DNA of 34,836 nt from Chloroflexota bacterium (GTDB lineage: Bacteria; Chloroflexota; Limnocylindria; Limnocylindrales; Limnocylindraceae): contig JBEGQU010000055.1 of assembly GCA_041180765.1 (NCBI GenBank), positions 1 through 34,836 of the forward strand, given 5' to 3'. Below, one piece after another: positions 6,273-32,769 of this stretch (the stretch's first letter is position 1; each line of letters opens with the position of its first letter). Made by a program: the position numbers and the translations under genes. Below the pieces are notes generated by a model, which was not told the DNA's origin, did not search any database, and saw only the letters and a list, made by a program, of their open reading frames with translations.

Positions 6273-6278
6273 GCGCGT

Positions 6279-6287: not shown

Positions 6288-6337
6288 CGACCCCGCCGCG
6301 GCGGGCGCCCCGCGGGCGCGCGGCGCGGCACGGCGGC

Positions 6338-9250: not shown

Positions 9251-9254
9251 GCGA

Positions 9255-10655: not shown

Positions 10656-10658
10656 CGG

Positions 10659-11669: not shown

Positions 11670-11674
11670 GTCCC

Positions 11675-11680
11675 AGACTG
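11675..11680 (-). promoter_or_regulatory. weak -10-like hexamer, CAGTCT-N5-ATG(11669)
   Basis: nAnnnT hexamer 5 nt upstream of the WYL start, with no SD. Suggests a leaderless regulator mRNA. Confidence 0.25.
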
Positions 11681-11724
11681 TGCCACAACCGCCGTATCGG
11701 GAGCAGCCCCCGTGCGAGGCTCCC

Positions 11725-16001: not shown

Positions 16002-16100
16002 TCTCCCCATCGCGACAGGGGAGCGCCTCGGGCGCTGAGATGCGGAACGTCCGCGAACCCTCGGAACCTGATCCGGGTCATGCCGGCGAAGGGAGACGCA
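16002..16100 (+). promoter_or_regulatory. TPP (THI-box) riboswitch
   Basis: CAGGGGAGCGCC-UCG-GGCGCUGAGA ... ACCC-UCG-GAACCUGAUCCGGGUCAUGCCGGCGAAGGGA matches the conserved THI-box core (CUGAGA, ACCC, GAACCUGAUC, GCCnGCGnAGGGA). It sits directly upstream of thiamine genes. The outer P1 boundaries are uncertain. Confidence 0.85.
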
Positions 16101-16125
16101 GCCCCCGCGACAGGAAGGTGGGCCC

Positions 16126-16782
16126 GTGCGCGCATTGATCCTCTCCGGCGGCGATCGACCCGATCGGGCGGCGCTCGACGCCGCGCATCCGGGCTGGGAC
16201 GACGCTGCGCTGGTGATCGCCGCCGACTCCGGCGCCCGCCATGCCGCCCCCCTCGGACTGCGGATCGACCTGGCGATCGGGGACTTCGACTCGCTCGACG
16301 CCGGAGAGCTGGCGGGCCTCGCCGCCGCCGGCGCCCGCGTCGAACGGCACCCTCCCGAGAAGGATGCGACCGACACCGAGCTGGCGCTGCTCGCCGCGAT
16401 CGCGGCGGGCGCGACGGAGATCGCGATCCTCGCCGCCTGGGGCGGGCGCGCGGACCAGGCGCTGGGGACGGCCCTGCTGCTCGCGCACCCGCGGGTCGCG
16501 GCGGCAGGCGTGCGGCTCGAGATCCTCGACGCGACCAGTCGCATCCGCCTCCTGCGCGCCACCGAGCGACTCGAGCTCCGCGGCGCGCCCGGGAGCGTCG
16601 TCTCGCTGTTGCCGCTGGGCGGCGACGCGACGGTGAGTGCCGAAGGGTTGCGCTGGCCGCTCGATCGCGCAACCTTGCGCGCCGGCGAGTCCCGCGGCCT
16701 GTCGAACCTCGTCGTCGGTGCGCTCGCAACGGTACGCGTCCACCAGGGCGCGCTGTTGGTCAGCGAAGGGGGTGCGGAGTGA
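16126..16782 (+). CDS. thiN: thiamine pyrophosphokinase (TPK/ThiN type)
   Basis: 218 aa with a GTG start after the AGGAAGG SD. Motifs IAADSGA, GDFDS and KDATDTELAL are typical of thiamine diphosphokinase. Confidence 0.85.
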   Translation: MRALILSGGDRPDRAALDAAHPGWDDAALVIAADSGARHAAPLGLRIDLAIGDFDSLDAGELAGLAAAGARVERHPPEKDATDTELALLAAIAAGATEIAILAAWGGRADQALGTALLLAHPRVAAAGVRLEILDATSRIRLLRATERLELRGAPGSVVSLLPLGGDATVSAEGLRWPLDRATLRAGESRGLSNLVVGALATVRVHQGALLVSEGGAE

Positions 16783-17372
16783 ACGGCACGGCGAATAACG
16801 ATCGGCGAACCGCGGCGCGGCGTACCTGGAGCCTCCTCGACACGGTCACCGTGGCGACCGTCGGCGTCGCCTGCGGCGTCCTCTTCGCCGGGTGGAACCT
16901 GCTCTGGGGCGCTGTATCGCCGCTCTTCGCGGCGCTGCTCCCGCTGCAGTACCTCCTCTTCGCCGGCACATGGGTCATCGCCGGGCCGCTGGCGGGGCTG
17001 GTCGTCCGTCGACCGGGCGCGGCGCTCGCCGGCGAGGTGGTTGCCGCGTCGGTCTCGTTCCTGTTGGCGAGCCAGTGGTCGGTCGACGCGCTCTTCTCGG
17101 GCGCGGCCCAGGGCCTCGGGGCCGAGCTGGCGCTGCTCGCCTTCGGCTATCGCCGCTTCGGTGTCGGCGTCGCGCTGCTCGCCGGCGCGCTCTCCGGCGT
17201 CGGCATGGCGCTGCACGACCTGCCGCTCTACTTCGCCGGCGTCGATGCGGCGTTCGCCCAGGCACTCGCCGCGGCGATGATCGCCAGTTCGGCGCTCGTC
17301 GGCGGGCTCGGCGCGCACCTCATCGAGCGCGGGCTGCGCCGCAGCGGAGCCCTCCCGCCCGTCGCCGCGTGA
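16779..17372 (+). CDS. ykoE: YkoE-like substrate-capture (S) component of an ECF-type thiamine/HMP transporter
   Basis: The GTG overlaps the TPK stop (GTGA). 197 aa with about 6 TM helices. RRPGAALAGEVVAASVSFLL and AAQGLGAELALLAFGYRR resemble B. subtilis YkoE (RKPGAALVSEIIAALVE, IVQGLGAEAVFLATRWK). Confidence 0.8.
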   Translation: MNGTANNDRRTAARRTWSLLDTVTVATVGVACGVLFAGWNLLWGAVSPLFAALLPLQYLLFAGTWVIAGPLAGLVVRRPGAALAGEVVAASVSFLLASQWSVDALFSGAAQGLGAELALLAFGYRRFGVGVALLAGALSGVGMALHDLPLYFAGVDAAFAQALAAAMIASSALVGGLGAHLIERGLRRSGALPPVAA

Positions 17373-17382
17373 TCCCGCGCCG

Positions 17383-19485
17383 ATGACGCCCGAGGTCCGG
17401 CTCGCCGACCTCGTCTGGCAGCCGGCGGGCGCCGATGCGCCGACCCTCGACCTGCGCGGGGTGCGGTTGCACGTACCGGCGGGCGGACTGCTCGTCGTGG
17501 AGGGGCGCTCCGGCGCGGGGAAGACCACCCTCCTCCGTGCGCTGGCCGGGCTCCTCGGCACGCTGCTCCCCGGCGACCTCCGGGGCGAACTCACCGTGGG
17601 TGGGGTCGACCTCGTCGCCGCCGCAGGACGCCTTCCCGGGCCGCCGGTCGACCACCTCGCCGGGCTCGGCCTCCTCCCCGCCGGCCCCGCCCCGGCCAAC
17701 GCGCTGCCACGCCTCCTCGACGACGCCGCCCTTCCGCTCGAGGCGCGCAGGTTCCGACGCGCGGCGATGGCCCCGGCGATCCTCGCCGCCGCGGGGCGGG
17801 CGGGCCTCGCGACGCCGCTCCTCGAGCGCGGCGTCGGCGACCTCAGCGGCGGCGAGCGCATCCAGGCGGCGGCCCTCGTCGCCCTCGTCGCGGGCCCCTC
17901 GCTGCTGCTCGCCGACGAGCCGTTCGCCGGGCTGGATGCCGGCGCGGCGGCGCACCTCCGCGCGACGCTGCTCGCCGAGCGGGCGACGCGCATCATCGCC
18001 GTCCACGACGCCGGGGAGGTCGGGGATCCATCGGCGCAGGTACTGCGGATCGGTGCGCCCGCGACGCGCGTTCGCGTCGCGGTGCGCGACCGGCGACCGC
18101 GCGAGCTGCCGGCGCACGGGCACGGCGACGCCCGACCCGTGCTGCAGGCGATCCGCATCGCCTCGCGCGCGCGGCCCGTTTCCGCCGCGAGCTTCGCGCT
18201 CTTCCCCGGCGAGCCGACGCTGCTCGAGGGGGCAACGGGGAGCGGCAAGTCGACGCTGCTCGCGCTCGCCGCGGGGGTGCTTCCCGCCGACGAGGGCGAG
18301 CGGCTCGTCGACCCACATCAGCGCATTCGCCTCGCGCCGCAGGACCCGGGGCTGCTGCTCGGCGCACGCCCGGCCGCGGAGCGCCTCGCGCGCGGCGAGC
18401 GCCCGGCCGCCGAGCGCCTCGCGCGCGCCCTCGACGTCGCCCACCTGCTCGACGTTCCGCCGGGCCGCTGTTCCGACGGCGAGCGCCGTCGCCTCGCGCT
18501 CGTGGTCGCCCTCGCCGCATCGCCGACGATCCTCGTCGCCGACGAACCGACCGCCGGGCTCGACGACGAGCGGGCCGCGACCGTGGCGCGCCTGCTCGAC
18601 GAGTGCGCCGCCGCGGGCGCGGCGCTGCTCGTGGCGACGCACGATCCGCGGCTGTACCTGCAGCGGGAGCGGCGGCTGCTCCACCCCGCCGAGACCGCCG
18701 CACCCGCCGCGGCGCCGGGTTCGACGGTGCGCCTTCCCGCCCCCGCGGCCGTGGCGGTCGATGCGGCGCAGCAGCTGCTCAGCCCCGCGCTGCCGCGCCG
18801 CCTCCTCGGCACGGCGAACCCGCTCACGCGCGCCGGGCTCGCCCTCTTCTGGTTCGCCCTCTCGCTCCTCAGCCCGACGACCCTCGTCGCCCAGGGGGCG
18901 ATCGCCCTCCCGGTGCTCCTCGTCGCCTGGCTCTCCGGGGTCGAGCTCCTCGCCACGCTCCGCCTGGCCGCAGCCCTCGCGCCGGCGATCGCGGGGCTGG
19001 TGCTGGCGAACCTGCTCGGTGGCGCGAGCGGCGAGGAGGCGGTCGGCGCCGGGGCGCGCCTGGTCGCCTTCGCCGCGGGGAGCCTCGTCCTGCTCCGCCC
19101 GTTCGAACCGCTTCGCCTCGCCGACGCGGCGATCGAGTGGCTCCGGGCCCCCTTCGCCGCGACGATGGCGCTGCTCGCGACCGCCGCGACGATCCCCGCG
19201 ATGCGCGCCGAGGCGCGCGAGCGCCGGGCGATCCGACGCCTCAGCCGCAGCGCTGCGGACCCGCTCCTCTTCGTCGATACCTTCGACGCGCTGGTGCGCG
19301 CGGTGCCGGCACTCGCCATCGCCCTCGAGATCCGCGGCGTGAGGATCCCCACGCGCACCGCCCCGCCGACGCGCCTCCGCCCATCGGGCTTCGGCCGCGC
19401 CGACGCACTGCTCGTCGCCGCGAGCGCGGGAGGCCTGCTGGTCAGCGTCGTCCGCGCGATCGCCGATGCTATCCTCGCGCCATGA
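17383..19485 (+). CDS. fused duplicated ABC ATPase (YkoD-like) plus EcfT/CbiQ-type transmembrane component (YkoC-like)
   Basis: 700 aa. NBD1: GRSGAGKTT, LSGGERIQ, LLLADEPFAGLD, AVHD. NBD2: GATGSGKST, degenerate signature CSDGERRR, ILVADEPTAGLD, VATHD. The C-terminal ~250 aa are polytopic and carry ARERRAIRRL, an EcfT-like Ala-Arg region. Confidence 0.8.
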   Translation: MTPEVRLADLVWQPAGADAPTLDLRGVRLHVPAGGLLVVEGRSGAGKTTLLRALAGLLGTLLPGDLRGELTVGGVDLVAAAGRLPGPPVDHLAGLGLLPAGPAPANALPRLLDDAALPLEARRFRRAAMAPAILAAAGRAGLATPLLERGVGDLSGGERIQAAALVALVAGPSLLLADEPFAGLDAGAAAHLRATLLAERATRIIAVHDAGEVGDPSAQVLRIGAPATRVRVAVRDRRPRELPAHGHGDARPVLQAIRIASRARPVSAASFALFPGEPTLLEGATGSGKSTLLALAAGVLPADEGERLVDPHQRIRLAPQDPGLLLGARPAAERLARGERPAAERLARALDVAHLLDVPPGRCSDGERRRLALVVALAASPTILVADEPTAGLDDERAATVARLLDECAAAGAALLVATHDPRLYLQRERRLLHPAETAAPAAAPGSTVRLPAPAAVAVDAAQQLLSPALPRRLLGTANPLTRAGLALFWFALSLLSPTTLVAQGAIALPVLLVAWLSGVELLATLRLAAALAPAIAGLVLANLLGGASGEEAVGAGARLVAFAAGSLVLLRPFEPLRLADAAIEWLRAPFAATMALLATAATIPAMRAEARERRAIRRLSRSAADPLLFVDTFDALVRAVPALAIALEIRGVRIPTRTAPPTRLRPSGFGRADALLVAASAGGLLVSVVRAIADAILAP
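18367..18432 (+). repeat. in-frame 33-nt tandem duplication inside NBD2
   Basis: The first 28 nt of the two 33-nt copies match at 27/28 positions. They encode RPAAERLARGE / RPAAERLARAL. Confidence 0.9.
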
Positions 19486-19967: not shown

Positions 19968-20025
19968 CCCTCGCGCGGCGCCCCGTCGCCCTTCGCGGCC
20001 GGGCACGGGATCCCGGGTCCCCTGA

Positions 20026-20031
20026 TACGAT
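20026..20031 (+). promoter_or_regulatory. possible -10 (TACGAT) for the respiratory operon, inside the ctgat-acg-atcag palindrome
   Basis: This is the only TAnnnT hexamer in the 110-nt gap. It would give a ~40-nt leader carrying GGAAAGG before GTG 20078. A 10-nt palindrome, cgggatcccg, lies just upstream. Confidence 0.25.
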
Positions 20032-20077
20032 CAGCACGGCGGCGCAAGCCCCTCGAACACCCACGGAAAGGCTGACC

Positions 20078-21907
20078 GTGACCCTCGAGACACAGGAGTT
20101 CCTCGTCCAGCCCGTCGACGCGAGCTGGCTGCAGTGCAACATCGAGTGCCAAGAGGCCTGCCCCGTCGGCACCAACTGCCGCGGCTACCTGAACCTCGCC
20201 GCCGAGGGGCGCTTCGAGGAGGGGTACCTCCTCTCCCGCGAGCCCAACCCGATCGCCGCGATGTGCTCCTACGTCTGCTCGGCTCCGTGCGAGCGCGCCT
20301 GCCGCCGCGGCGACATCGACCGTCCGCTGGCGATCCGCGCGATGAAGCGCTTCCTCGTCGAGTGGCACGCCGCCTCGGGGATCCCCCACATCGCCCCCGA
20401 GATCACCCCCCGCAGCGAGCGGGTGGCGGTGATCGGCGCCGGCCCCGCCGGCCTCTCGGTCGCCCGCGAGCTGGCGGTGAAGGGCTACCAGGTCACCGTC
20501 TACGACAGCTTGCCGTACGGCGGCGGCACGATGCTCATCGGCGTCCCTGCCTTCCGCCTGCCGCGCGAGGCGATCGAGACCGACGTGCGCCTGATCGAGC
20601 GGCTCGGCGTGCGGTTCGTCTACAACACCGAGGTCGGCCGCGACATCACCTTCGAACAGCTGCAGGCGGACTACGACGCGATCGCGATCTGCGCCGGCGC
20701 GATGGACGCCGTGGCGCTCGACATCCCGGGGGCCGACCTCGAGGGGCTCGTCTACGGCGTCGACTTCATGAAAGACGCCAACCTCGGCAAGCCGCTGCAG
20801 GTCGGCAAGGACGTCGTGGTCATCGGCGGCGGCTACACCGCGATGGACTGCTCGCGCACCTCGCTCCGCCACGGCGCCGAGCGCGTCACGATCGCCTACC
20901 GCCGCACGCGCTCCGAGCTCGTCGTCGACGAGGAGGAGCTGGGCGAGACGGAGCGCGAGGGGGTGCGCATGGACTTCCTCGTCTCGCCGCTCGAGATCAT
21001 CGGCGAGAACGGGCGCATCACCGGCGTGCGCATGATCAAGAATCGCCTCGGCGAGCCCGACGCGTCGGGCCGCCGCAGCCCCGTGCCGATCGAGGGCTCG
21101 GAGTTCATCCTGCCGGCCGACACGGTCATCCCCGCCGTCTCGCAGGCCGCCGACCTCGGGTTCCTCCCGGTCTCGAGCTCCTTCGAGGTCGCGCGCGGCC
21201 GCGTCAAGGTCGACCCCGCCACCTACGCCACGAACATCCGCGGCGTGTGGGCCTGCGGCGACTTCGTCACCGGCCCGGCGACGATGATCGAGGCGGCGGG
21301 CCACGCGAAGAAGTGCGCCTATGCGATCGATCGCTACCTGGCCGGTGCGGCGGTGCAGGTCGACGCCAACGTGCGCATCACCAGCTCCTGGCGCCACGAG
21401 ATGCCGGAGTTCTACGACCGGATCCCGCGCCAGCACATCCCGGTCCTCCCCCTCGAGGCGCGCCTCCCGTCCGCCGACCCGACGGTCAACTTCACCACCC
21501 AGGTCGAGCTCGGCTACGGCGCCCAGCAGGCGATCGCCGAGAGTACCCGCTGCCTGATGTGCAACTACAACATCTGGTTCGACCCGATGCGCTGCGTCCT
21601 CTGCGGCGCCTGCGCCGACGTCTGCCCCGAGGGGGTCATCCACATGGTCGACATCAACCAGCTCAAGGCGGAGGGGCAGCTCCCCGTGCTCAGCGAGGCC
21701 TACGGCTGGGAGAACGGGGCCGCCATGCTCCTCGACGAGGAGCGCTGCATCCGCTGCGCCCTGTGCGTCAAGCGCTGTCCCTTCGACGCCATTACGATGG
21801 AGCGGTTCGAGCTGCAGGAGATCAGCTCGGACGGGCGGCTCTACAAGGAGTCGTACCGCGACGGGCAACTGGCCGGCGTCGCCGGCATCGGAGGGGGTGC
21901 ACAGTGA
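20078..21907 (+). CDS. GltD-like NAD(P)H:FAD oxidoreductase with N-terminal Fe-S domain and C-terminal 2x[4Fe-4S] ferredoxin domain
   Basis: GTG start after GGAAAGG. N-terminal CNIECQEACP...CSYVCSAPCERAC. Two dinucleotide folds, VAVIGAGPAGL and VVVIGGGYTAMDC, plus VWACGDF. C-terminal CLMC..., CVLCGACADVCP and CIRCALCVKRCP. Confidence 0.8.
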   Translation: MTLETQEFLVQPVDASWLQCNIECQEACPVGTNCRGYLNLAAEGRFEEGYLLSREPNPIAAMCSYVCSAPCERACRRGDIDRPLAIRAMKRFLVEWHAASGIPHIAPEITPRSERVAVIGAGPAGLSVARELAVKGYQVTVYDSLPYGGGTMLIGVPAFRLPREAIETDVRLIERLGVRFVYNTEVGRDITFEQLQADYDAIAICAGAMDAVALDIPGADLEGLVYGVDFMKDANLGKPLQVGKDVVVIGGGYTAMDCSRTSLRHGAERVTIAYRRTRSELVVDEEELGETEREGVRMDFLVSPLEIIGENGRITGVRMIKNRLGEPDASGRRSPVPIEGSEFILPADTVIPAVSQAADLGFLPVSSSFEVARGRVKVDPATYATNIRGVWACGDFVTGPATMIEAAGHAKKCAYAIDRYLAGAAVQVDANVRITSSWRHEMPEFYDRIPRQHIPVLPLEARLPSADPTVNFTTQVELGYGAQQAIAESTRCLMCNYNIWFDPMRCVLCGACADVCPEGVIHMVDINQLKAEGQLPVLSEAYGWENGAAMLLDEERCIRCALCVKRCPFDAITMERFELQEISSDGRLYKESYRDGQLAGVAGIGGGAQ

Positions 21908-22632
21908 GCCTTCTGGCGAGGGTCGATCAGGCGGTCCGACGATCGTCGGCCTGGCGCTCCATCTTCCGCAACTCCTATCCCAACGACGAGCGGAGCCGCG
22001 CCTATGCGGTGATGAACAACGTCTTCCTCCACCTCCACCCCGTGCGGGTTCGCCAGCACGCGGTGAAGTTCGCCTACACCTTCTGCCTCGGGGGCCTCTC
22101 GTTCTTCCTCTTCCTGGTGCTCACCGTGACCGGGGTCTACCTGATGTTCTTCTACGCGCCGTCGGCGACCCAGGCCTACAGCGACATCCTCAAGATCCAG
22201 ACGCTCGTGCCGTTCGGCCAGATCACCCGCAACGTGCACCGATGGGGCGCGCACCTGATGGTCTTCTTCGTCTTCCTGCACATGATGCGCGTCTTCTACC
22301 ACGGTGCCTACAAGCCGCCGCGCGAGTTCAACTGGGTCGTCGGCGTGATCCTGCTCTTCCTCACGCTGATGCTCAGCTTCACCGGCTACCTGCTGCCGTG
22401 GGACCAGATCGCCTACTGGGCGATCACGATCGGTTCGAACATGGCCGGCTACGCACCGCTCTTCAACACGCCGTCCAAGCTCCTGCTCCTCGGCGGCCTC
22501 GAGGTGGGGCAGAACACCCTGCTGCGCTTCTACGTGCTCCACGTGATGGTCTTCCCGCTCCTCGCGGCGGTCTTCCTGGCGGTCCACTTCTGGCGGATCC
22601 GCAAGGACGGCGGCATCAGCGGGCCCCTGTGA
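21904..22632 (+). CDS. cytochrome b6-type (N-terminal, four-helix) cytochrome b
   Basis: The GTG overlaps the flavoprotein stop (GTGA). Two His pairs 14 residues apart (HRWGAHLMVFFVFLH and LHVMVFPLLAAVFLAVH). FCLGG cysteine present. C-terminus HFWRIRKDGGISGPL resembles b6. Confidence 0.9.
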   Translation: MSLLARVDQAVRRSSAWRSIFRNSYPNDERSRAYAVMNNVFLHLHPVRVRQHAVKFAYTFCLGGLSFFLFLVLTVTGVYLMFFYAPSATQAYSDILKIQTLVPFGQITRNVHRWGAHLMVFFVFLHMMRVFYHGAYKPPREFNWVVGVILLFLTLMLSFTGYLLPWDQIAYWAITIGSNMAGYAPLFNTPSKLLLLGGLEVGQNTLLRFYVLHVMVFPLLAAVFLAVHFWRIRKDGGISGPL

Positions 22633-22642
22633 GCGCACGACG

Positions 22643-23242
22643 ATGAGCGAGAAGCCGGTAGAGCAGCGGGCCCAGGGGAGCAGCCTCCCGGTCGACCCGT
22701 CGCGCCGCACCGAGATCGACAAGCAGCGCGTGCCGATGGCGGCGCGCCCCTACCGCCTCCTGGCGCTGGTCAAGCAGGACGCCGTGGTGCGGGTGCAGAA
22801 GGAGCCGGACGACACGGTGATGACCTGGCCGCACCTGCTGACGATCGAGTTCCTCGCCGCGGTCGCGATGAGCATCTTCCTGCTCCTCCTCGGCCTCTTC
22901 ATCAACGCGCCGCTCGAGGAGCTGGCGAACCCGAACGTCACCCCCGCCGTCGCCAAGGCCCCCTGGTACTTCCTCGGCCTGCAGGAGCTGCTCGCCTACT
23001 TCCACCCGACGGTCGCGGGAGCGCTGACGCCGATCGCGGTGCTCGTCGGCTCGGCGCTGATCCCGTACCTCGACCGCCGCAACATCCACAGCACCCGCCC
23101 GAGCGACCGCAAGCTCGAGGTCTCGCTCTTCTCGCTCCTCTGGGCGCTCGGCCTGACGGTGACCTTCATCGGCATCTTCTTCCGCGGCCCCGGGTACTCC
23201 TTCATCCTGCCGTGGTCCACCGGCTTCTTCTTCAGCCTGTGA
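22643..23242 (+). CDS. cytochrome b C-terminal part (subunit IV-like)
   Basis: 199 aa with 3 TM helices. Qo-loop region NPNVTPAVAKAPWYFLGLQELL corresponds to the PEWY segment. Confidence 0.85.
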   Translation: MSEKPVEQRAQGSSLPVDPSRRTEIDKQRVPMAARPYRLLALVKQDAVVRVQKEPDDTVMTWPHLLTIEFLAAVAMSIFLLLLGLFINAPLEELANPNVTPAVAKAPWYFLGLQELLAYFHPTVAGALTPIAVLVGSALIPYLDRRNIHSTRPSDRKLEVSLFSLLWALGLTVTFIGIFFRGPGYSFILPWSTGFFFSL

Positions 23243-23255
23243 TCGGGGGAGCACG

Positions 23256-23924
23256 ATGAGCCACTACTCCGTGGAACCCGCCGACAAGCCCAAGGCGCTG
23301 ACCGCCCAGACGATCAAGGCGCTGCGCCACGAAGAGGTGCAGGGGATCTCGCGTCGCAGGCTGCTGCGCACGACGATCGGCGCCGGCTTCGCACTCTGGC
23401 TGCTCGAGGTGACGACCGGCACCCTCGGCTTCCTCTGGCCCAACCTCGAGGGCGGCTTCGGCGGCAAGGTGCGCATCGGCACCCTCGACGACCTGAAGAA
23501 GGGGAACGTGGGCCTTCCGATCGCCGAGGGCTACCCCGCCTACGTGCAGGAGGCGCGCGCCTTCATCATGCTCGTCGATCCGAGCCGCCAGGAGTTCGTG
23601 CCGGGCGAGGATCCGACCGGCGAGGGGAGCGCGCTGAACGTGCGCGCCCTCTACCAGCGCTGCCCGCACCTCGGTTGCAAGCCGAACCCGTGTATCAAGA
23701 CCTACTGGCTCGAGTGCGCCTGCCACGGCAGCCGCTACGACCGCCTCGGCACCAAGGCCGACGGCCTCGGCCCGGCGCCGCGCGGCATGGACCGCTTCGC
23801 CCTCTCCGTCGACGACAGCGGCGTGTTGACGCTCGACACCGGCAAGATCAGCCTCGGCTCCGCGCCCGTCGCGCTCGGCCAGCCGGGGATCGAGGCGCCG
23901 CGCGCCGCCACGGGGTGCATCTGA
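23256..23924 (+). CDS. Rieske [2Fe-2S] subunit with Tat signal
   Basis: SRRRLLRTTIGAGFALW twin-arginine signal-anchor. Cluster boxes CPHLGC and CACHGSRYD. GGGGGAG SD upstream. Confidence 0.9.
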   Translation: MSHYSVEPADKPKALTAQTIKALRHEEVQGISRRRLLRTTIGAGFALWLLEVTTGTLGFLWPNLEGGFGGKVRIGTLDDLKKGNVGLPIAEGYPAYVQEARAFIMLVDPSRQEFVPGEDPTGEGSALNVRALYQRCPHLGCKPNPCIKTYWLECACHGSRYDRLGTKADGLGPAPRGMDRFALSVDDSGVLTLDTGKISLGSAPVALGQPGIEAPRAATGCI

Positions 23925-24937
23925 TGGCCGACGAGCAGCGCGACCTCCCCGTGCCGGCGGAGCGGGAGAGCGCCCCCGTGCCGCGCCTCTCGAGCCCGGC
24001 GGCGATCCACACCCACGGGCTCGATGCCGAGCGCGCCGCGAAGATCGTGAAGCAGAGCGGCTCCTCGCGCGCCGCCGCGCTCCTCGGCGTGATGATCGTG
24101 ACGATCTTCGTGCTGCTCTACGCCTTCTACGACCAGGGGCTTCCCGGCACGACCGGCTCGTCGCGACTCGCCGCGGCGCGCGAGGAGCAGTACCTCGAGA
24201 CGGTGAAGCGCGGCTACAACCTGTTCCAGGCGAACTGTGCCCGCTGCCACGGCGACCAGGGGCAGGGCGGCATCGGCCCGGTCCTCAACGACCAGGGGAA
24301 GCTCCTCTCCCACCTCACGCCGGCGTACCTGAAGAACGTGCTCACCGTCGGCGGCCGCTACGTGTGCGGCAACGCCAACTCGCTCATGGGCGTCTGGGCC
24401 GACGTCAACGGCGGCCCGCTGAACTACCGCGAGATCGAGGAGCTCATCGCCTGGATCCGCGCCACGAAGGACGACACGATCACCGTCACCGATCCGGCGA
24501 CCGGCGAGAAGGTCGAGGTGACCGGCTGGCGCGATGCCGCCTACGAGCCGGCCCCCGATGCGACCCCCGTCCCCGCCTGCTGGAGCGACGCCTTTGCCGC
24601 GTCGCCGACGCCGACCCCCTCGGGCGGCACGCCGAGCGCTCCCGCGGGCGAGACCTACACGATCGTCGCCATGGGGGTGAAGTTCACCACCTCGACGCTC
24701 GAGGTCGCGGCAGGAACGGCGTTCCGCATCGCCTTCGACAACCAGGATGCCGGCATCCCGCACAACGTTGCGATCCACGAGGGGACCGTCGACGCGGTCG
24801 GCAAGGAGCTCTACCAGGGGGCGATCTTCCCGGGCGTGGCGCAGAAGACCTACGACATCCAGGCGCTCGCCGCGGGCAGCTACGTGTATGTGTGCACGGT
24901 GCACCCGAACATGGTCGGCACCCTGGTGGTGAAGTGA
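23924..24937 (+). CDS. membrane-anchored monoheme cytochrome c fused to a type-1 copper (cupredoxin) domain
   Basis: The ATG shares one nt with the Rieske stop (TGATG). Contains a TM helix, a CARCH heme motif, a Pro/Thr/Ser linker, then cupredoxin ligands HNVAIH...CTVHPNM. Confidence 0.85.
   Translation: MADEQRDLPVPAERESAPVPRLSSPAAIHTHGLDAERAAKIVKQSGSSRAAALLGVMIVTIFVLLYAFYDQGLPGTTGSSRLAAAREEQYLETVKRGYNLFQANCARCHGDQGQGGIGPVLNDQGKLLSHLTPAYLKNVLTVGGRYVCGNANSLMGVWADVNGGPLNYREIEELIAWIRATKDDTITVTDPATGEKVEVTGWRDAAYEPAPDATPVPACWSDAFAASPTPTPSGGTPSAPAGETYTIVAMGVKFTTSTLEVAAGTAFRIAFDNQDAGIPHNVAIHEGTVDAVGKELYQGAIFPGVAQKTYDIQALAAGSYVYVCTVHPNMVGTLVVK
24752..24819 (+). repeat. arm A of an inverted repeat between the two cupredoxin genes
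   Basis: 63/68 nt identical to the reverse complement of 27958..28025. A second 26-nt block, 24893..24918, is identical to the reverse complement of 27859..27884. Confidence 0.9.
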
Positions 24938-26460
24938 TGGCCGGCAGCGACGCCCCCCGCGCGCTCGGAGCCGGCAGCGTGCCGCCGAAGCGCGCGCTCT
25001 TCGGCCTGCTCGACGCGGCCGGCTGGGGCTGGGCGTTCTTCCGCGCGGTGCTCTGGACCCTCGTGATCATCCTGCTCCTCGGCTACGTGCCGGACCGCGC
25101 CTATTACCTGACCGTCTCGCCGACCGTCGAGCTCGGGCTCAACATCGTCTCGCCGGTGAACATCTGCCCGGCGGAGAACGAGGGGCTGCCGTGCCCCGCC
25201 CCCGTCGGCGCGCTCGTTCCCTGGAAGGACGGCGCGACGACGTCGCTCCCCGGCGGCGGCGAGGGCGGCGCGCTGTTGCAGGCGGGCTCGCACGTCTACT
25301 ACCTCGGCGGCTTCGCGGCGGGCGCGCTCGACGAGTTCGCCACGACCGCCGCGGTCACCACCGCCGAGATCACCGCCGAAGGCCTCGGCGACTGGTCTGC
25401 CGCCGCGCCGCTCCCCGAGCCGCGAGCGCACGCCGCCGTCGCCTACCTCGCCGGCAAGGCCTACGTGATCGGCGGCACCTCTGCCACCGAGGTCGCCACC
25501 TCGACCGTGTACGTCGGCACGCCCGACGCGGCGAGCGGCCTGATCGCATCGTGGTCGTCGGTTGACGCGATCAAGCTCCCCGAGGCACGAACCGGTGCGG
25601 CGGTCGTGGCCGTCTCCGACGGCCTGCTCCTCGTCGGCGGCGAAGACGCCGCGCACGTCCCGCAGGCCACGGTCTGGAAGGCGACCCTCGGCGAGAGCGG
25701 CGAGCTCGGCGCATGGACGGAGTTCATGGCCCTGCCGTCCCCCCGCGCCGCCGCCGCCGCCGCGCTCGTCGGCGACGCCCTCTACGTCTGGGGCGGCCGC
25801 GATGCGTCCGGTCCGACCGGCGTCGCCCTGCGCGGCGACATCGCCGTGGCGAAGAGCCCGGCGACCGGGCACAGCACCACGCCCGCCGTCGACAACGGCC
25901 AGGGCGATGCCGAGATCGGCACGATCTTCCGCTGGACCGCGACGGAGGCTGCCGCCAGCCTGCCGCAGCCGCGCGACGGCGCCGCGCTCTGGTCGGCGAA
26001 CGGCACGCTCTACGTTGCCGGCGGCACCGTCGACGGCGCCGTGACGACCGACGTTTCCTGGGCCGCGCCGACCGCTATCGGCGGGATCGCCGGGTGGACG
26101 AGCGTCGACCAGAGCGACCTGCCCGGCGACGCCGCGCGGGTGGGCGCGGTCGGGACGGTCGTCGGCGGCCAGGCGCTGCTCATCGGCGGTCGCGACGCCG
26201 CCGGCGATCCGACGGCCACCGCGCTGGTGGCCGGCACCTCGCCGAAGGCACCGGTGTTCCGCCTCGGGCTCTTCGGGCTGACCGTGCCCGGCCTGGCGAT
26301 CCCCGGCGAGGTCGGGCAGCAGCTCGGCTACCTCGCCGCCGCAGGCGTCTGGACCCTGCACTTCGTCCTGCTGCTCGCCGCCGCCGTGGCGTACGCGCAG
26401 CGGGAGCGCTTCGGCGCCTGGGTGCGCCGACTCGCCGGGCGGAAGGGTCCTCGCAGCTAG
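24937..26460 (+). CDS. Kelch-repeat beta-propeller protein with N- and C-terminal TM anchors
   Basis: The ATG shares one nt with the preceding stop (TGATG). Six blades are marked by YYLGG, YVIGG, LLVGG, YVWGG, YVAGG and LLIGG. One hydrophobic helix at each end. Confidence 0.8.
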   Translation: MAGSDAPRALGAGSVPPKRALFGLLDAAGWGWAFFRAVLWTLVIILLLGYVPDRAYYLTVSPTVELGLNIVSPVNICPAENEGLPCPAPVGALVPWKDGATTSLPGGGEGGALLQAGSHVYYLGGFAAGALDEFATTAAVTTAEITAEGLGDWSAAAPLPEPRAHAAVAYLAGKAYVIGGTSATEVATSTVYVGTPDAASGLIASWSSVDAIKLPEARTGAAVVAVSDGLLLVGGEDAAHVPQATVWKATLGESGELGAWTEFMALPSPRAAAAAALVGDALYVWGGRDASGPTGVALRGDIAVAKSPATGHSTTPAVDNGQGDAEIGTIFRWTATEAAASLPQPRDGAALWSANGTLYVAGGTVDGAVTTDVSWAAPTAIGGIAGWTSVDQSDLPGDAARVGAVGTVVGGQALLIGGRDAAGDPTATALVAGTSPKAPVFRLGLFGLTVPGLAIPGEVGQQLGYLAAAGVWTLHFVLLLAAAVAYAQRERFGAWVRRLAGRKGPRS

Positions 26461-26499: not shown

Positions 26500-26574
26500 T
26501 GGTGAGCCGGGCGGGGTTCGAACCCGCGACCAAGGGTTTAAAAGACCCCTGCTCTACCGCTGAGCTACCGGCCC
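26500..26574 (-). tRNA. tRNA-Lys (anticodon UUU), CCA encoded
   Basis: Reverse complement folds as GGGCCGG-UA-GCUC-AGCGGUA-GAGC-A-GGGGU-CUUUUAA-ACCCU-UGGUC-GCGGG-UUCGAAC-CCCGC-CCGGCUC-A-CCA. Confidence 0.93.
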
Positions 26575-27157: not shown

Positions 27158-27180
27158 GGCGCCCATCCGGCGCCCCGTTT
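27158..27180 (+). terminator. weak terminator-like hairpin after the DUF2203 gene
   Basis: ggcgcc-catcc-ggcgcc (6-bp stem) followed by ccgTTTg. The U tract is short. Confidence 0.3.
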
Positions 27181-27201
27181 GACGCCCCGCGCTCCGGCGC
27201 C

Positions 27202-27207
27202 GATACT
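27202..27207 (+). promoter_or_regulatory. possible -10, GATACT-N5-position 1 of tRNA-fMet
   Basis: nAnnnT hexamer ending 5 nt before the mature 5' end of the tRNA. Confidence 0.3.
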
Positions 27208-27212
27208 CTCGG

Positions 27213-27287
27213 AGCGGGGTGGAGCAGTGGCAGCTCGTCGGGCTCATAACCCGAAGGTCGGTGGTTCGAATCCATCCCCCGCAACCA
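27213..27287 (+). tRNA. initiator tRNA-fMet (anticodon CAU), CCA encoded
   Basis: Closely parallels E. coli tRNA-fMet: AGCGGGG-UG-GAGC-AGUGGCA-GCUC-G-UCGGG-CUCAUAA-CCCGA-AGGUC-GGUGG-UUCGAAU-CCAUC-CCCCGCA-A-CCA. Has three G:C pairs in the anticodon stem, A11:U24, and an unpaired 1:72. Confidence 0.93.
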
Positions 27288-27327: not shown

Positions 27328-27843
27328 CTAGGGACCCGAGACGAACGCCGCGATCTCCTCGATGCTGCCGAACGGCCCCACCTGGTAGTCGAGCACGCGC
27401 CCCTGCGCATCGAGCAGGAGCGTCAGCGGCGCGGCGTTCACCGGCACCTGGGCGGCGATCGCGCCGCCGGGATCGAGCAGCGTCGGCCAGGTCGCGCCGA
27501 GGTCGAGCGCCGCCTCGAGCGCGGGCCCCGACTCGTCCCGGTAGAGCACGCCGACGAGGCTGGCGGCGTCCCCATCGGTCGCCAGGTACTCGGCGAACAG
27601 CGGGATCTCGTCGCGGCAGGGAGCGCACCAGCTCGCCCAGAAGTTCATCAGGAGCCGCGTGCCCCCCTCGTCGAGCAGTTCGCCGTAGCCGGGGCGGGCG
27701 GCGGCGTCGCCGAGCAGTTGTGCGCCGGCGATGTCGATCGTCCGCCCCACGAGCGGCGTGGGGGAGGCGGCGATCCCCCCGCAGCCGGTGACGATGAGCA
27801 GCGCTGCGAGCAGGGCGGCGACCGGCCCGCCCCGGCGGATCAC
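27328..27843 (-). CDS. TlpA/ResA-family thiol:disulfide oxidoreductase lipoprotein
   Basis: The GTG overlaps the upstream stop (GTGA). Lipobox LLIVTGC and thioredoxin motif FWASWCAPC. An ATG at 27867 is an alternative start. Confidence 0.85.
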   Translation of the reverse strand: MIRRGGPVAALLAALLIVTGCGGIAASPTPLVGRTIDIAGAQLLGDAAARPGYGELLDEGGTRLLMNFWASWCAPCRDEIPLFAEYLATDGDAASLVGVLYRDESGPALEAALDLGATWPTLLDPGGAIAAQVPVNAAPLTLLLDAQGRVLDYQVGPFGSIEEIAAFVSGP

Positions 27844-28931
27844 TTGGCGCTCAGGCTCCCGACCATGTTCGGGTGCACCGTGCAGACGAAGACGTATTCG
27901 CCGGCCGGCAGCCCGACGATGGTGTACGTGCGCTCGTCGGCGCCGTTGAAGATCTCGCCCTGGAAGAGCTCCTTGCCGACTGCGTCGACGGTCCCCTCGT
28001 GGATCGCCACGTTGTGCGGAATCCCAACGTCGTAGTTGACGAACCGCAGCTTGCGCGGCTCCCCGGCCGGGAGCTCGATGGAGGGGAGCAGGAAGGCGAC
28101 CTTCTCGGCGCAGATCGTCACGACGCCGGTCTCGTCGGGGGCGCAGGCGGGGCCGCTCGGGCTCGGGCTCGGACTCGCCGCGCCGCCGCCGAAGATTCCG
28201 GCCTGCGTCCCGCCGACGAAGACGAAGAGCAGGGAGAAGGCGACGATGGCGCCGAGCGGGGCGCGGCGCGGCGCCGGCGACACCAGGTGGCCCGAGGCAT
28301 CGGCCGCTTCGACCGCGCGGTACTCGCGTCCGGCATCGACGAGCCAGCCGACGAGGGCGAGCGCCGTCATCGCGGCGCCGAGGAGCAGCCACGACGCACC
28401 GATCGCGGCACCGAAGAGGAGGACGGCGGCCCCGAGGCTCACCAGGAAGGGGAGCAGCGAGGGGGGCGGAAGGTGGACGCCCTCGGGCGGACCCGCCGGC
28501 TCGACCGGCTGCGCCACATCCGCGGCGGCGACCAGCGCGTTGCCGTGCCCGTCGCCGAGCAACTCGTATTCGCGGAACGCTTCGCGCCCCCAGGCGAGCA
28601 GCGCGGCCACGAAGAGGGCGGCGGCGACCCAGAGCGCGATCCCGCCGAGTGCGACGGAGAAGAAGAGCGCGGCGGCCGCGGCCGAGATCAGGAACGGGGC
28701 GAGGCTGGGCCCGGGGAGGTGGATCCCGGCCGGGGGCACCTCGGCGCGGGGCGGCAGGCCGACCCGGCGGCGCCCGGCGCGGGCGTAGCGCCAGAGGACC
28801 CAGGCGTAGTAGCCGGCCACGAGGAGCAGCGCGCCGATCGGGAGGAGGCGGATGAGCGCCCCCCAGTCGGGGGCGACGAGTGGCCCGAGGAGCGAGACGA
28901 GCCACTCGAGCAGGGAGCGGAGGAACTCCAT
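27840..28931 (-). CDS. polytopic membrane protein: two tandem CtaF-like (oxidase subunit IV-like) modules fused to a cupredoxin domain
   Basis: 363 aa. The internal repeat is GIHLPGPSLAPFL..(2 TM)..WGREAFREYE and GVHLPPPSLLPFL..(2 TM)..WLVDAGREYR. A Ser/Pro linker follows, then HNVAIH...CTVHPNM. Confidence 0.8.
   Translation of the reverse strand: MEFLRSLLEWLVSLLGPLVAPDWGALIRLLPIGALLLVAGYYAWVLWRYARAGRRRVGLPPRAEVPPAGIHLPGPSLAPFLISAAAAALFFSVALGGIALWVAAALFVAALLAWGREAFREYELLGDGHGNALVAAADVAQPVEPAGPPEGVHLPPPSLLPFLVSLGAAVLLFGAAIGASWLLLGAAMTALALVGWLVDAGREYRAVEAADASGHLVSPAPRRAPLGAIVAFSLLFVFVGGTQAGIFGGGAASPSPSPSGPACAPDETGVVTICAEKVAFLLPSIELPAGEPRKLRFVNYDVGIPHNVAIHEGTVDAVGKELFQGEIFNGADERTYTIVGLPAGEYVFVCTVHPNMVGSLSAK
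27958..28025 (-). repeat. arm B of the inverted repeat between the two cupredoxin genes
   Basis: See arm A. It encodes the identical peptide GIPHNVAIHEGTVDAVGKEL. Confidence 0.9.
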
Positions 28932-28943
28932 CGCGCGCCTGGC

Positions 28944-29108
28944 CTAGGCGGCCGTGTCCATCGCGTGGATGATGATCAGCGTCATCGTCGTCATCGCGAC
29001 GCCGAGGGCGTAGAGCATGGCCACGCCGCCGATGTCGCCGGAGAGCACGTAGTAGACGGTGCCGATGGCGACGAAGAGGGCTCCGAAGGCGACGGCGAAG
29101 CGTTTCAC
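28944..29108 (-). CDS. 54-aa two-helix membrane protein (below the ORF-track cutoff), possibly the N-terminal half of a CtaF-like subunit
   Basis: GTG start 5 nt after a strong GAGGAGGG SD, with high GC3. Translation: VKRFAVAFGALFVAIGTVYYVLSGDIGGVAMLYALGVAMTTMTLIIIHAMDTAA. The stop lies 12 nt before the next gene. Confidence 0.6.
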   Translation of the reverse strand: MKRFAVAFGALFVAIGTVYYVLSGDIGGVAMLYALGVAMTTMTLIIIHAMDTAA

Positions 29109-29149
29109 GGGACCCTCCTCTGCGGCGCTCTGCTTTGGCGCGGCACGGC

Positions 29150-29155
29150 TACATT
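29150..29155 (+). promoter_or_regulatory. putative -10, TACATT-N6-GTG(29162)
   Basis: Hexamer 6 nt before an in-frame GTG of the CtaG ORF. It overlaps a minus-strand TAGAAT at 29153..29158. Confidence 0.35.
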
Positions 29156-29158
29156 CTA
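29153..29158 (-). promoter_or_regulatory. putative -10 (TAGAAT) for the small-membrane-protein/cupredoxin/TlpA operon
   Basis: Near-consensus hexamer on the minus strand. It predicts a ~38-nt leader carrying the GAGGAGGG SD. Confidence 0.35.
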
Positions 29159-29161
29159 CCC

Positions 29162-30103
29162 GTGAGCAGAATTCCCGCCCACGGACCGCTCCCCCCCGAG
29201 CCGGGCCTCGACGCGCTCCTCTACTGGGCCTCGCCGCCGCTGGTGACGCTCGCGGCGCTCGCCGTCCTCGCGCTCTGGCTGCTCGCCGTCCGCCGCGTCG
29301 GCTCCGAGCATCCCGCCAACCCGGTGCCCCGTCGCCGCACGGCGTACCTCGCCGCCGGCCTCGGGTTCCTCCTGCTCGCCCTCCAGTCGCCGATCGAGCG
29401 CTACGACACGACCCTCTTCAGCGTCCACATGGTGCAGCATCTGATCCTCCTCTTCCCCGTGCCGGTGCTGCTGCTGCGCGCCGGACCCGTGACGCTGCTG
29501 CTGCGCGTCGCCTCCCCCCGCTGGCGCGCACGCCTCCTCGCCGTGCTCCACGGACGGGTCGTCGGCGCGCTCGGGCACCCGCTCGTCGGCTGGCTGCTCC
29601 TCCCCGCGGTGATGTGGGCCACGCACCTCTCGCCGCTCTTCGACGCTGCGCTCGAGGACCCGCTGCTCCACGATCTCGAGCACCTGCTCTATCTCGGCAG
29701 CGCCCTCCTCTTCTGGGCCCCCGTCGCCTCCGTCGATCCGCTCCGCCACCGCCTGTCGCGCCCCGCCGCCCTCGGCTACCTGATCTCGCAGATGCCGCAG
29801 AACAGCTTCTTGGGCGTGGCGATCATGTGGTCGGGCGCGGTGCTCTATCCGCACTACGCCACCCTCGGGCGCACCTGGGGTCCCGATCCGCTCGTCGACC
29901 AGCAGCTGGCGGGAGCGCTGATGTGGGCACTCGGCGACGCGCTCTTCCTCGTGGCGATCTTCGCCGTGCTCGCCGCCTGGATGCGCGATGATGAGCGCGG
30001 CACCGGGCGCACCGATACCGCGAGCGCGGCGGCGCTCGCCGAGATCAACCGCCGTGCCGACCTGCTGGCGGCACGGACTGCAGGAGAGGAGCGCACCCCA
30101 TGA
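29162..30103 (+). CDS. cytochrome c oxidase assembly protein, CtaG (caa3/Bacillus) type
   Basis: Polytopic membrane protein with FSVHMVQHLILL and HDLEHLLYL His motifs. I prefer GTG 29162 (leaderless geometry) over the track start TTG 29135. Confidence 0.8.
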   Translation: MSRIPAHGPLPPEPGLDALLYWASPPLVTLAALAVLALWLLAVRRVGSEHPANPVPRRRTAYLAAGLGFLLLALQSPIERYDTTLFSVHMVQHLILLFPVPVLLLRAGPVTLLLRVASPRWRARLLAVLHGRVVGALGHPLVGWLLLPAVMWATHLSPLFDAALEDPLLHDLEHLLYLGSALLFWAPVASVDPLRHRLSRPAALGYLISQMPQNSFLGVAIMWSGAVLYPHYATLGRTWGPDPLVDQQLAGALMWALGDALFLVAIFAVLAAWMRDDERGTGRTDTASAAALAEINRRADLLAARTAGEERTP

Positions 30104-30348
30104 GCGTGGCGATCGATCCGGTCTGCGGCATGGAGGTGCCGATCGGGCCGGATGCCCTCACCTCCACCGTCGATCCGCGGCGGCTCGCGAATGCCGGGCA
30201 GCCGGGGCGGCACCGCGGCGTCGCCGAGACGGGGGCGGACGGGGCCCCCGCCGAGCGCTTCTGGTTCTGCGGGCGGGGCTGCCTGCTCGACTTCGGCGAC
30301 GAGCCCGAGCGCTATCTCGATGCCGCCTTCGCGCCCTCGGGGATGTAG
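30100..30348 (+). CDS. YHS/TRASH-domain metal-binding protein
   Basis: The ATG overlaps the CtaG stop (ATGA). DPVCGM...FWFCGRGCLLDF..EPERY matches the YHS pattern, with a ~30-aa insertion. Confidence 0.75.
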   Translation: MSVAIDPVCGMEVPIGPDALTSTVDPRRLANAGQPGRHRGVAETGADGAPAERFWFCGRGCLLDFGDEPERYLDAAFAPSGM

Positions 30349-30425: not shown

Positions 30426-30713
<288 letters not shown>

Positions 30714-32767: not shown

Positions 32768-32769
32768 GC

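Follow-up and report, generated by a model that had tools for sequence, protein, structure and literature searches.

In this study, we analysed contig JBEGQU010000055.1 of an uncultured Chloroflexota bacterium of the Limnocylindria (assembly GCA_041180765.1), a stretch of 34,836 nt that is called the window throughout. Its plus strand carries an operon of six genes (20078-26460), which encodes a flavoprotein with NADP(H)- and flavin adenine dinucleotide (FAD)-binding motifs, a short cytochrome b, a subunit IV-like protein, a Rieske protein, a cytochrome c-cupredoxin fusion and a Kelch-repeat protein, in this order (Table 1). The main subject here is the flavoprotein, its linkage to cytochrome b and the membrane complex that the two may form. 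The flavoprotein and cytochrome b genes overlap by 4 nt (GTGA), with GGAGGGGG just 5' of the cytochrome b start. Gaps of 10 and 13 nt precede the subunit IV and Rieske genes, respectively, and GGGGGAG stands 5' of the Rieske ATG. The Rieske stop and the start of the cytochrome c-cupredoxin gene overlap as TGATG at 23924, and a second TGATG at 24937 joins the stop of the latter to the start of the Kelch gene. A first-pass annotation of the window had described a chain of five genes ending at 24937. Its frames and junctions were recovered when the genes were translated and the junctions read, but the chain was cut short, as the coupled Kelch gene carries it on to 26460.

The five ORFs (open reading frames) of that annotation are real genes, judging by a third-position GC of 0.94-0.99 in the plus-strand frames of the operon at about 74% G+C for the window. 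Their lengths agree with those of homologues where compared (flavoprotein, 609 vs 610-611 aa; cytochrome b, 242 vs 242 aa). A promoter and terminator consensus scan gave no usable match within or 5' of the operon. A gene for a Bcp-type peroxiredoxin lies 110 nt upstream and is not kept beside the operon in relatives. The operon region (window 20000-25000) has 68-71% G+C, compared with 74-79% in the upstream flank; membrane-protein composition could explain this as well as a foreign origin by horizontal transfer would.

Table 1. Coordinates of the operon genes and of other features in the window.
Feature	Position	Strand	Remarks
NfnB/GltD-type NADP(H)-FAD flavoprotein	20078-21907	+	609 aa; GTG 20078 to TGA 21907
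Short b6-type cytochrome b	21904-22632	+	242 aa; GTG start 21904
Subunit IV-like protein	22643-23242	+	199 aa; ATG 22643
Rieske [2Fe-2S] protein	23256-23924	+	222 aa; ATG 23256
Monohaem cytochrome c-cupredoxin fusion	23924-24937	+	337 aa; ATG 23924
Kelch-repeat beta-propeller protein	24937-26460	+	507 aa; ATG 24937; sixth gene
tRNA-Lys(UUU)	26500-26574	-	opposite strand; closes the operon unit
tRNA-Met(CAU)	27213-27287	+	
Thiol-redoxin	27328-27843	-	
Membrane protein	27840-28943	-	C-terminal cupredoxin domain; weak Cyt_c_ox_IV match
caa3 assembly factor CtaG	29186-30103	+	
YHS-domain protein	30091-30348	+	
Small 2x[4Fe-4S]-type ferredoxin	30462-30713		
2-oxoacid:ferredoxin oxidoreductase alpha subunit	32707-34650		
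TPP (thiamine pyrophosphate) riboswitch	16007-16111	+	74 bits; precedes thiamine pyrophosphokinase gene and ECF-type transporter (16165-19485)
Rieske-type ring-hydroxylating oxygenase alpha subunit	4974-6329	-	unrelated to the operon Rieske protein

Proteins encoded by the operon

Pfam recovered domains in all five proteins named in the first-pass annotation, and NCBIfam, solved-structure matches and motifs agreed with its domain reading, including the 2x[4Fe-4S] domain added at the C-terminus of the flavoprotein. In this protein, Fer4_20 (residues 18-100) is followed by Pyr_redox_2 (115-409) and two Fer4 repeats (Fer4/Fer4_7, 505-573). Sixteen cysteines make up four [4Fe-4S] motifs, two of them N-terminal (20/24/28/34 and 63/67/71/75; C-x3-C-x3-C-xn-C) and two in the C-terminal ferredoxin domain (506/509/512/516 and 557/560/563/567; CxxCxxCxxxCP). 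Beyond these, R491-C492-x2-C495 is invariant in 50 family members. The FAD site GxGxxG lies at 120-125 and a second dinucleotide site reads GGGYTAMD...AYRRTRSE, in which we take the YRR motif (AYRRTR) to mark NADP(H) binding, as in GltD/NfnB/DPD-type proteins. A sequence scan found no hydrophobic or transmembrane segment and no signal peptide, and without a transmembrane segment the flavoprotein is therefore predicted to be cytoplasmic.

The best solved relatives of the flavoprotein by sequence are the NADP(H)-binding A subunits of the bifurcating complexes NfnABC and StnABC, followed by NfnB and GltD (E-values of 1e-81 to 1e-109 against the NfnB/NfnABC/StnABC modules), and the C-terminal domain matches FwdF (5t5i). 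The same ranking was obtained when the AlphaFold2 model (pLDDT, predicted local distance difference test, 89; pTM, predicted template modelling score, 0.89) was searched with Foldseek: NfnABC 9bov_A, StnABC 8oh5_C and NfnABC 9n5u_A came first, then NfnI-L, Xfn and GltD, with query-normalised TM-scores (template modelling scores) of 0.6-0.72 against NfnB and the NfnABC/StnABC A subunits. Thus, the fold, two N-terminal [4Fe-4S] clusters, FAD and the NADP(H) site are shared with NfnB (NfnI-L, 4ylf_B) and with these A subunits (9bov, 9n5u, 8oh5). However, NfnA and Bfu partner genes are absent from the window, the partner of its flavoprotein would be a membrane cytochrome b complex, and the FwdF-like C-terminal 2x[4Fe-4S] domain is an addition. 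In NCBIfam, no curated model is reached at its cut-off; PRK12771 ('NAD(P)-binding protein') comes nearest (439.6 vs 516). The small subunit of glutamate synthase was rejected on these cut-offs (TIGR01317, 204.9 vs 447.7; TIGR01318, 273 vs 483; TIGR01316, 335 vs 472), and the window holds no GltB. The name 'formate dehydrogenase beta', which relatives bear at the Joint Genome Institute, is likewise ruled out by curated cut-offs and missing partner genes.

The cytochrome b (Pfam Cytochrome_B, 1.1e-44) has cytochromes b6 as its best solved relatives (E 6e-52). The alignment begins only at residue 59 and is b6-like through the C-terminal GISGPL; the first 58 residues are unalignable with b6. Seven residues, H43, H112, H126, H213, H228, R231 and K234, are invariant in 12 flavoprotein-linked cytochromes b (alignment A3). 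H112/H126 and H213/H228, on helices B and D, provide two bis-His haem sites, and C61 of FCLGG (CxGG motif) is the putative attachment cysteine of haem cn. His43 belongs to an invariant Leu-His pair 18 residues before the haem-cn position; it is conserved like the four canonical haem ligands and has no b6 counterpart. Subunit IV (Pfam Cytochrom_B_C, 6.2e-07) has three hydrophobic, putatively transmembrane segments and an N-terminal extension of about 60 aa. In place of PEWY its Qo motif is APWY (106-109), within KAPWYFLGLQE (105-115), which is identical or near-identical in all 13 linked loci, with single substitutions flanking APWY in four of them.

Both cluster boxes with the disulfide cysteines are present in the Rieske protein (Pfam Rieske; CPHLGC...CACHGSRY), together with a twin-arginine (Tat) signal, SRRRLL. 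It carries the same Ser-x-Tyr pair as Kuste4569 of Kuenenia stuttgartiensis, and such Ser/Tyr pairs have been linked to a high potential of Rieske proteins (Hauser et al., 2025; PMC12954380). In every Rieske protein of a linked locus CPCHGS precedes Tyr or Phe, and its Ser is common to all. The next protein combines a cytochrome c domain (Pfam Cytochrom_C/Cytochrome_CBB3, 93-181; a single CxxCH, CARCH, at 105) with a cupredoxin domain (Cupredoxin_1 and Copper-bind, 239-337) over a Pro/Thr/Ser linker, behind an N-terminal transmembrane helix (50-68). The cupredoxin domain has type-1 copper ligands in H...CTVHPNM (H...C-x2-H-x2-M), and the whole is predicted to be the high-potential exit of the complex, facing outward. 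Fusions of this kind are found in over 100 clusters of homologues, with identities as low as about 51%, and nearly all of the named ones are Limnocylindrales or other Chloroflexota. The Kelch protein (Pfam Kelch families) has one transmembrane helix at each end (33-51 and 466-484). Because basic residues flank both helices, its propeller probably faces outward. To our knowledge, no bc-type complex with a Kelch-type subunit has been described.

Linkage of the flavoprotein to cytochrome b across phyla

A pattern scan of one genome per species with an 11-sequence flavoprotein alignment (A2) recovered at least 80 loci and was followed by tblastn and ORF mapping. The flavoprotein and cytochrome b genes are adjacent in 5 of 5 sampled Limnocylindria relatives (L001-L004 and L082). 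In L001, with a flavoprotein 84% identical to that of the window on a 1.2-Mb contig, all six genes stand in series with the 4-nt flavoprotein/cytochrome b overlap, and the flanking genes differ. Cytochrome b directly follows the flavoprotein in L002-L004 also, and the overlap is kept in L082, a deep Limnocylindria genome on a 2.2-Mb contig. The Kelch gene holds the same position after the operon in L001 and L002 (39-41% identity). The exit subunit varies within the Limnocylindria: the c-cupredoxin fusion of the window is found in L001 and L002, a dihaem cytochrome c in L003 and L004, and a monohaem cytochrome c of 150 aa in L082.

Judged by the labels of metagenome-assembled genomes (MAGs), the linkage also occurs in five other phyla, Abyssobacteria, Acidobacteriota, Eisenbacteria, Nitrospirae and Verrucomicrobia. 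There the flavoprotein gene is followed by Rieske, cytochrome b and subunit IV genes (L005, Abyssobacteria; L006, Chloracidobacterium; L008, Eisenbacteria; L011 and L020, Acidobacteriota; L019, Nitrospirae; L024, Verrucomicrobia; L053, Candidatus Acidiferrum). A 4-nt overlap of the flavoprotein gene with the next gene is kept in L001-L004, L082, L019 and L053. Among the matches listed that cover the full-length flavoprotein, 11 of 20 assessable loci are linked. Since the adjacency recurs in 12 independent loci of six phylum-level lineages, it is far beyond chance. This survey of neighbourhoods thus bears out the earlier view that the adjacency is not accidental, and shows that it is not confined to this genome, which the first-pass annotation had named as a result that would count against it; the translational coupling, likewise proposed from the GTGA overlap in the window, was found conserved in relatives.

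The nearest flavoprotein homologues are 82-94% identical and are labelled Chloroflexi, Candidatus Limnocylindrus or Limnocylindrales MAGs, several clusters holding hundreds of metagenomic members. In a search of 50%-identity representatives, identity falls from 79% to at most 49%, so the Limnocylindria flavoproteins form a tight, separate group. The full-length architecture is present in 64 of the best 150 representatives, and a natural fusion joining the flavoprotein to cytochrome b, Rieske or subunit IV was found in none of these 150. One homologue (P0170) has a His-rich, multi-transmembrane N-terminal domain of about 215 aa fused to the flavoprotein, with no Pfam match and no hhalign similarity to cytochrome b; through this domain, the same flavoprotein module may be anchored to the membrane in another way. 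A protein from the profile search with linked cytochromes b (P0286, 454 aa) consists of Fer4 and Cytochrome_B and appears to be an artefact, joined over the 4-nt overlap by gene calling or a frameshift.

A neighbour-joining tree built from the shared flavoprotein core places all linked flavoproteins in one clade, which also holds two unlinked intruders, L014 and L037, the latter a NuoF fusion. L014 (Alphaproteobacteria MAG; 8515-12509), the closest unlinked homologue, is followed by a second pyridine-nucleotide oxidoreductase and by genes for the alpha and beta subunits of a 2-oxoacid:ferredoxin oxidoreductase (OFOR). Pairwise divergences of flavoprotein and cytochrome b are strongly correlated over 13 linked loci (Mantel r 0.88, 0/5000 permutations), and also when the Limnocylindria are thinned to two sequences (r 0.73, 1/5000 permutations). 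Therefore, the two genes have travelled together, and shared organismal history contributes to this correlation.

The linked loci differ on the Qi side. The haem-cn cysteine is retained only in the Limnocylindria and in the Nitrospirae locus L019; in 7 of the 8 linked loci outside the Limnocylindria (L005, L006, L008, L011, L020, L024 and L053), G, Y or W stands in place of the CxGG cysteine, which suggests that these complexes have no classical Qi site. Five of the seven (L005, L006, L011, L020 and L024) have a cytochrome b-subunit IV fusion, and genes for cytochromes c with 7-9 haems follow the cytochrome b gene in at least L005 and L011. Taken together, and judged by sequence, the flavoprotein module is conserved and co-inherited across phyla, and APWY with the invariant His43 is a family-wide signature in six phylum-level lineages.

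Relation to anammox complexes and other cytochrome b families

Complexes of this kind have been noted before. Kao & Hunte (2014) defined an 'APWY clade' of cytochrome b from Chloroflexi, Planctomycetes, Nitrospirales, deep Actinobacteria and delta-proteobacteria, of which no member had been characterised, and associated the motif with reversed operation. Dibrova et al. (2017) reported 'in many other cases' a co-occurrence of short b6-like cytochromes b and large Fe-S oxidoreductases that bind NAD(P), and pictured cytochrome b as anchoring a protruding oxidoreductase. As cited there, oxidoreductase genes lie within bc operons of planctomycetes (Kartal, 2011, 2013; Dibrova, 2013), and Kuenenia expresses such complexes, in which the oxidoreductase subunit is reportedly present (de Almeida, 2016). 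Recently, two Kuenenia Rieske subunits were solved (9rk3 and 9rk4) and potentials of +303 and +335 mV were measured (Hauser et al., 2025; PMC12954380). The same study modelled a wire of four Fe-S clusters leading from FAD towards the n-side haems, and an unexpected additional haem b ligated by His43 (Kuste4571) or His62 (Kustd1481) of both monomers, and argued for quinol-driven NAD(P)+ reduction in the anammox complexes.

The window operon resembles the Kuenenia complexes R/b-2 and R/b-3 (Kustd1480-1485 and Kuste4569-4574) in the short b6-like cytochrome b with a haem-cn motif, the subunit IV-like protein, the Rieske protein of the high-potential type and, on the cytoplasmic side, an FAD protein that binds NAD(P) and has four Fe-S sites. 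The best solved relatives of the window Rieske protein are 9rk4 (Kuste4569, E 1.1e-9) and 9rk3 (Kustd1480, E 5.6e-9), the next match being at 1e-5. Moreover, the flavoprotein matches 9bov/9bp5 (NfnABC) and 5t5i (FwdF), the templates used by Hauser et al. (2025) for Kuste4570. The parallel to anammox complexes drawn in the first-pass annotation is thus well founded, although kinship among the core subunits is seen as the Rieske match at E ~1e-9, with Kuenenia cytochrome b and flavoprotein lying outside the comparison. A profile search for anammox sequences with the 12 linked cytochromes b returned only Chloroflexota. Like His43 and His62 in Kuenenia, His43 of the window is an N-terminal histidine of cytochrome b and a candidate ligand of an extra haem; judged by its position and invariance, it may be equivalent to His43 of Kuste4571.

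Differences are found at the periphery of the complex. One haem c and a cupredoxin form the exit in the window, whereas Kuenenia has hexa- or octa-haem cytochromes or an HAO-like protein, and subunit IV has three transmembrane segments in the window but five in the Kuenenia complexes. The gene order flavoprotein-b-IV-Rieske-c with an additional Kelch membrane protein is unlike that of Kuenenia. All eight N-terminal cluster cysteines are present in the window flavoprotein, while one ligand is missing from the anammox proteins. As host, the window has an aerobe-type Chloroflexota and not an anammox planctomycete. The operon shares with the APWY clade and with subfamily G of Dibrova (2013, 2017) a split b6-type cytochrome b, APWY at Qo and a patchy spread over several phyla including Chloroflexi. 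These papers classify sequences, and the window operon, its c-cupredoxin exit and the Kelch gene are absent from them; the window is likened to these groups by shared features alone. As this kind of complex has already been described (Kartal; Dibrova) and modelled (Hauser et al., 2025), with the co-occurrence reported in 2017 and the APWY clade defined in 2014, the suggestion of a new type of enzyme cannot be upheld. New are the monohaem c-cupredoxin exit, the Kelch partner, the different gene order and the aerobic Limnocylindria host, as well as the family-wide signature of APWY and His43.

With two bis-His haem sites in cytochrome b, a Rieske protein that has both cluster boxes and a Tat motif, and APWY, a recognised variant of the PxWY-type Qo motif, the operon has the traits of bc-type quinol oxidoreductases. 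A cytochrome b6f complex proper was rejected: there is no cytochrome f, the NCBIfam scores stay below their cut-offs (b6, 218.7 vs 325; subunit IV, 16.6 vs 127; PetC, 31.9 vs 250), and APWY stands in place of PEWY. The haem-cn cysteine is one b6f criterion that the window cytochrome b does share. A b6f complex with bound FNR likewise combines a short cytochrome b with haem cn, a subunit IV with three transmembrane segments and a flavoprotein proposed to feed the n-side; in the window, however, the operon-encoded flavoprotein is of the GltD type and not a plant-type FNR. Actinobacterial bcc complexes with the dihaem QcrC share a membrane-anchored two-domain exit that is able to pass electrons straight to the oxidase. 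The deeper Limnocylindria L003 and L004 have a dihaem cytochrome c at this position as in QcrC, while in the window the second domain holds copper and not haem.

The NCBI annotation points elsewhere. The Prokaryotic Genome Annotation Pipeline names cytochromes b of Limnocylindria and other Chloroflexota (P0297, P0311, P0312 and P0317) 'selenite/tellurite reduction operon b-type cytochrome ExtP', and the window protein just exceeds the cut-off of NCBIfam cytb_ExtP (296.7 vs 290). We nevertheless give almost no credence to an ExtOPQ-type module for selenite/tellurite or metal reduction. The ExtQ score is 49.5 against a cut-off of 150, and the genes that define ext clusters (PMC5877670), those for the rhodanese ExtH, the porin ExtI and the multihaem ExtKL/M/N/S, are absent from the window, whose host is a monoderm-type Chloroflexota with oxidase-assembly genes nearby. 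Geobacter ExtOPQ is itself an APWY-clade member without the flavoprotein (PMC5877670), and the ExtP naming of Limnocylindria cytochromes b is probably a systematic misnaming.

Direction of electron flow and biological meaning

We tentatively favour the reading that the operon encodes one membrane complex, in which an APWY Rieske/cytochrome b6-type quinol oxidase is joined on the n-side by an NfnB/GltD-type flavoprotein for quinol-driven NADP+ reduction, and we regard this as a serious possibility short of a probable one. The core of the complex would be a quinol oxidase resembling Dibrova subfamily G, on whose cytoplasmic (n) side the flavoprotein would dock, its four [4Fe-4S] clusters wiring the FAD to haem bH/cn or to a haem bound by His43. 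Menaquinol would be oxidised at the Qo site. The downhill electron would pass from the Rieske cluster over haem c and the type-1 copper to a terminal oxidase, and the other would cross the membrane via haems bL and bH (with cn and possibly an extra haem ligated by His43) to the Fe-S wire and the FAD. Two electrons arriving in this way would reduce NADP+, so that NADPH would be made from quinol and the oxygen-linked branch would pay for the uphill step. Potentially, the flavoprotein is a reversible branch beside an ordinary Q cycle and not the sole outlet; such a cycle probably runs in parallel, because the window keeps the haem-cn/Qi motif. We infer that the flavoprotein binds to the complex, that the wire reaches the haems, that menaquinone is the quinone used and that electrons flow in the anammox sense, the last because the family keeps APWY and a high-potential-type Rieske protein and because the Qi-side haem cn has been lost from many members. 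The topology fits, with a flavoprotein without transmembrane segment or signal peptide, a Tat motif in the Rieske protein and an N-terminal anchor in the cytochrome c. Menaquinone is the quinone expected for Chloroflexota. According to Hauser et al. (PMC12954380), menaquinone at about -70 mV and a Rieske centre above +300 mV provide enough drive to reach NAD(P)+ at -320 mV.

Several points weigh against this proposal. GltD-type modules mostly act as NADPH-oxidising input. The scheme is thermodynamically workable only with a low-potential quinone, and with a high-potential quinone in Limnocylindria the uphill branch is impossible; a search of the literature on Limnocylindria respiration and quinones found nothing. 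If this were the only complex III in the cell, bulk respiration could not be reconciled with an obligatory 1:1 bifurcation, and the retained haem-cn cysteine suggests a functional Qi site and a normal Q cycle. The putative equivalence of His43 with that of Kuste4571 goes by position and invariance. The monohaem exit module and the three-segment subunit IV set the window apart from anammox complexes. The nearest unlinked homologue (L014) adjoins OFOR genes, and in the window a ferredoxin and an OFOR subunit are encoded 4-6 kb downstream of the operon end. NAD(P)+ reduction has been demonstrated for no member of the family, and association of the flavoprotein has been shown by experiment in Kuenenia alone (proteomics, as cited in Dibrova et al., 2017).

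The same complex could also run backwards, a possibility that we rate as real but rather unlikely. NADPH would then be oxidised at the FAD, electrons would flow through the Fe-S wire to haem bH/cn or the extra haem, and quinone would be reduced at Qi. The four-helix cytochrome b would anchor an NADPH dehydrogenase, and the quinol formed would be oxidised at Qo towards cytochrome c and copper, functionally comparable to an NDH-2 attached to complex III or to the FNR-b6f route that has been proposed for cyclic electron flow. It is generally known that modules of the GltD/DPD/SudA type, whose fold the window protein matches, normally accept electrons from NADPH, and the window keeps the haem-cn cysteine and the conserved R231/K234 of the Qi-side region. 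Dibrova et al. (2017) explicitly envisage a cytochrome b that anchors a protruding oxidoreductase. In aerobes, non-pumping NAD(P)H:quinone routes are generally known to be common, and the 'energy waste' objection raised for Kuenenia (PMC12954380) is weaker here. However, reversed flow leaves unexplained why the unusual APWY at Qo and a Rieske centre of the high-potential type are kept in every linked complex, and why the haem-cn cysteine was lost in most linked complexes of other phyla; for the homologous anammox complexes this direction was judged unlikely by Hauser et al. (PMC12954380).

It is improbable, in our view, that the flavoprotein is a soluble NADPH:ferredoxin-type enzyme (NfnB/SudA-like) that is merely co-transcribed, e.g. 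to serve an OFOR, and does not dock on the membrane complex. Such a role would agree with the lack of a transmembrane segment, the absence of a natural flavoprotein-cytochrome b fusion among the 150 representatives, the 9 of 20 assessable full-length homologues, among the matches listed, that are not beside cytochrome b, and the OFOR genes beside L014 as well as the ferredoxin and OFOR alpha subunit genes downstream in the window. On the other hand, the linkage lasts across six phylum-level lineages despite changes in gene order and varied cytochrome c partners, usually with a stop/start overlap; the linked flavoproteins form one clade and co-diverge with cytochrome b; and the oxidoreductase subunit has been reported as part of the Kuenenia complexes (de Almeida, 2016, cited in Dibrova et al., 2017). 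Quinol-driven NADP+ reduction remains the reading that we favour.

The wider surroundings of the operon would be in line with an aerobic host. Downstream, thiol-redoxin, a cupredoxin-domain membrane protein, CtaG and a YHS-domain protein are encoded (27328-30348) in what is, by predicted function, a copper/oxidase-maturation neighbourhood and an aerobic context for the operon. The only sigma-70-like consensus match (27179-27207) in the scanned region lies just before tRNA-Met. Far upstream, genes for amino-acid ABC transport and for an FAD oxidoreductase of the DAO family (1129-4957) adjoin that of the unrelated ring-hydroxylating oxygenase.

Bifurcation at the Qo site to NAD(P)+ by a Rieske/cytochrome b complex was proposed for anammox bacteria and has so far been backed by Rieske potentials and models only. 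It is possible, though doubtful at present, that complex III of the Limnocylindria doubles as an oxygen-driven, quinol-bifurcating NADP+ reductase, a form of reverse electron transport that works without spending proton-motive force. If true, quinone-based bifurcation to a pyridine nucleotide would be known from an aerobe for the first time, and what was proposed for anammox bacteria would prove to be a general mechanism, shared by at least six phyla. The aerobe version has a simple haem c/copper exit instead of multihaem enzymes of nitrogen chemistry and would thus be a simpler, more tractable test system. If the flow were reversed, the operon would represent a novel direct entry for NADPH into complex III. 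If the mechanism holds, models of NADPH supply and of 'reverse electron flow' would change for very abundant uncultured bacteria of soils and lakes (freshwater).

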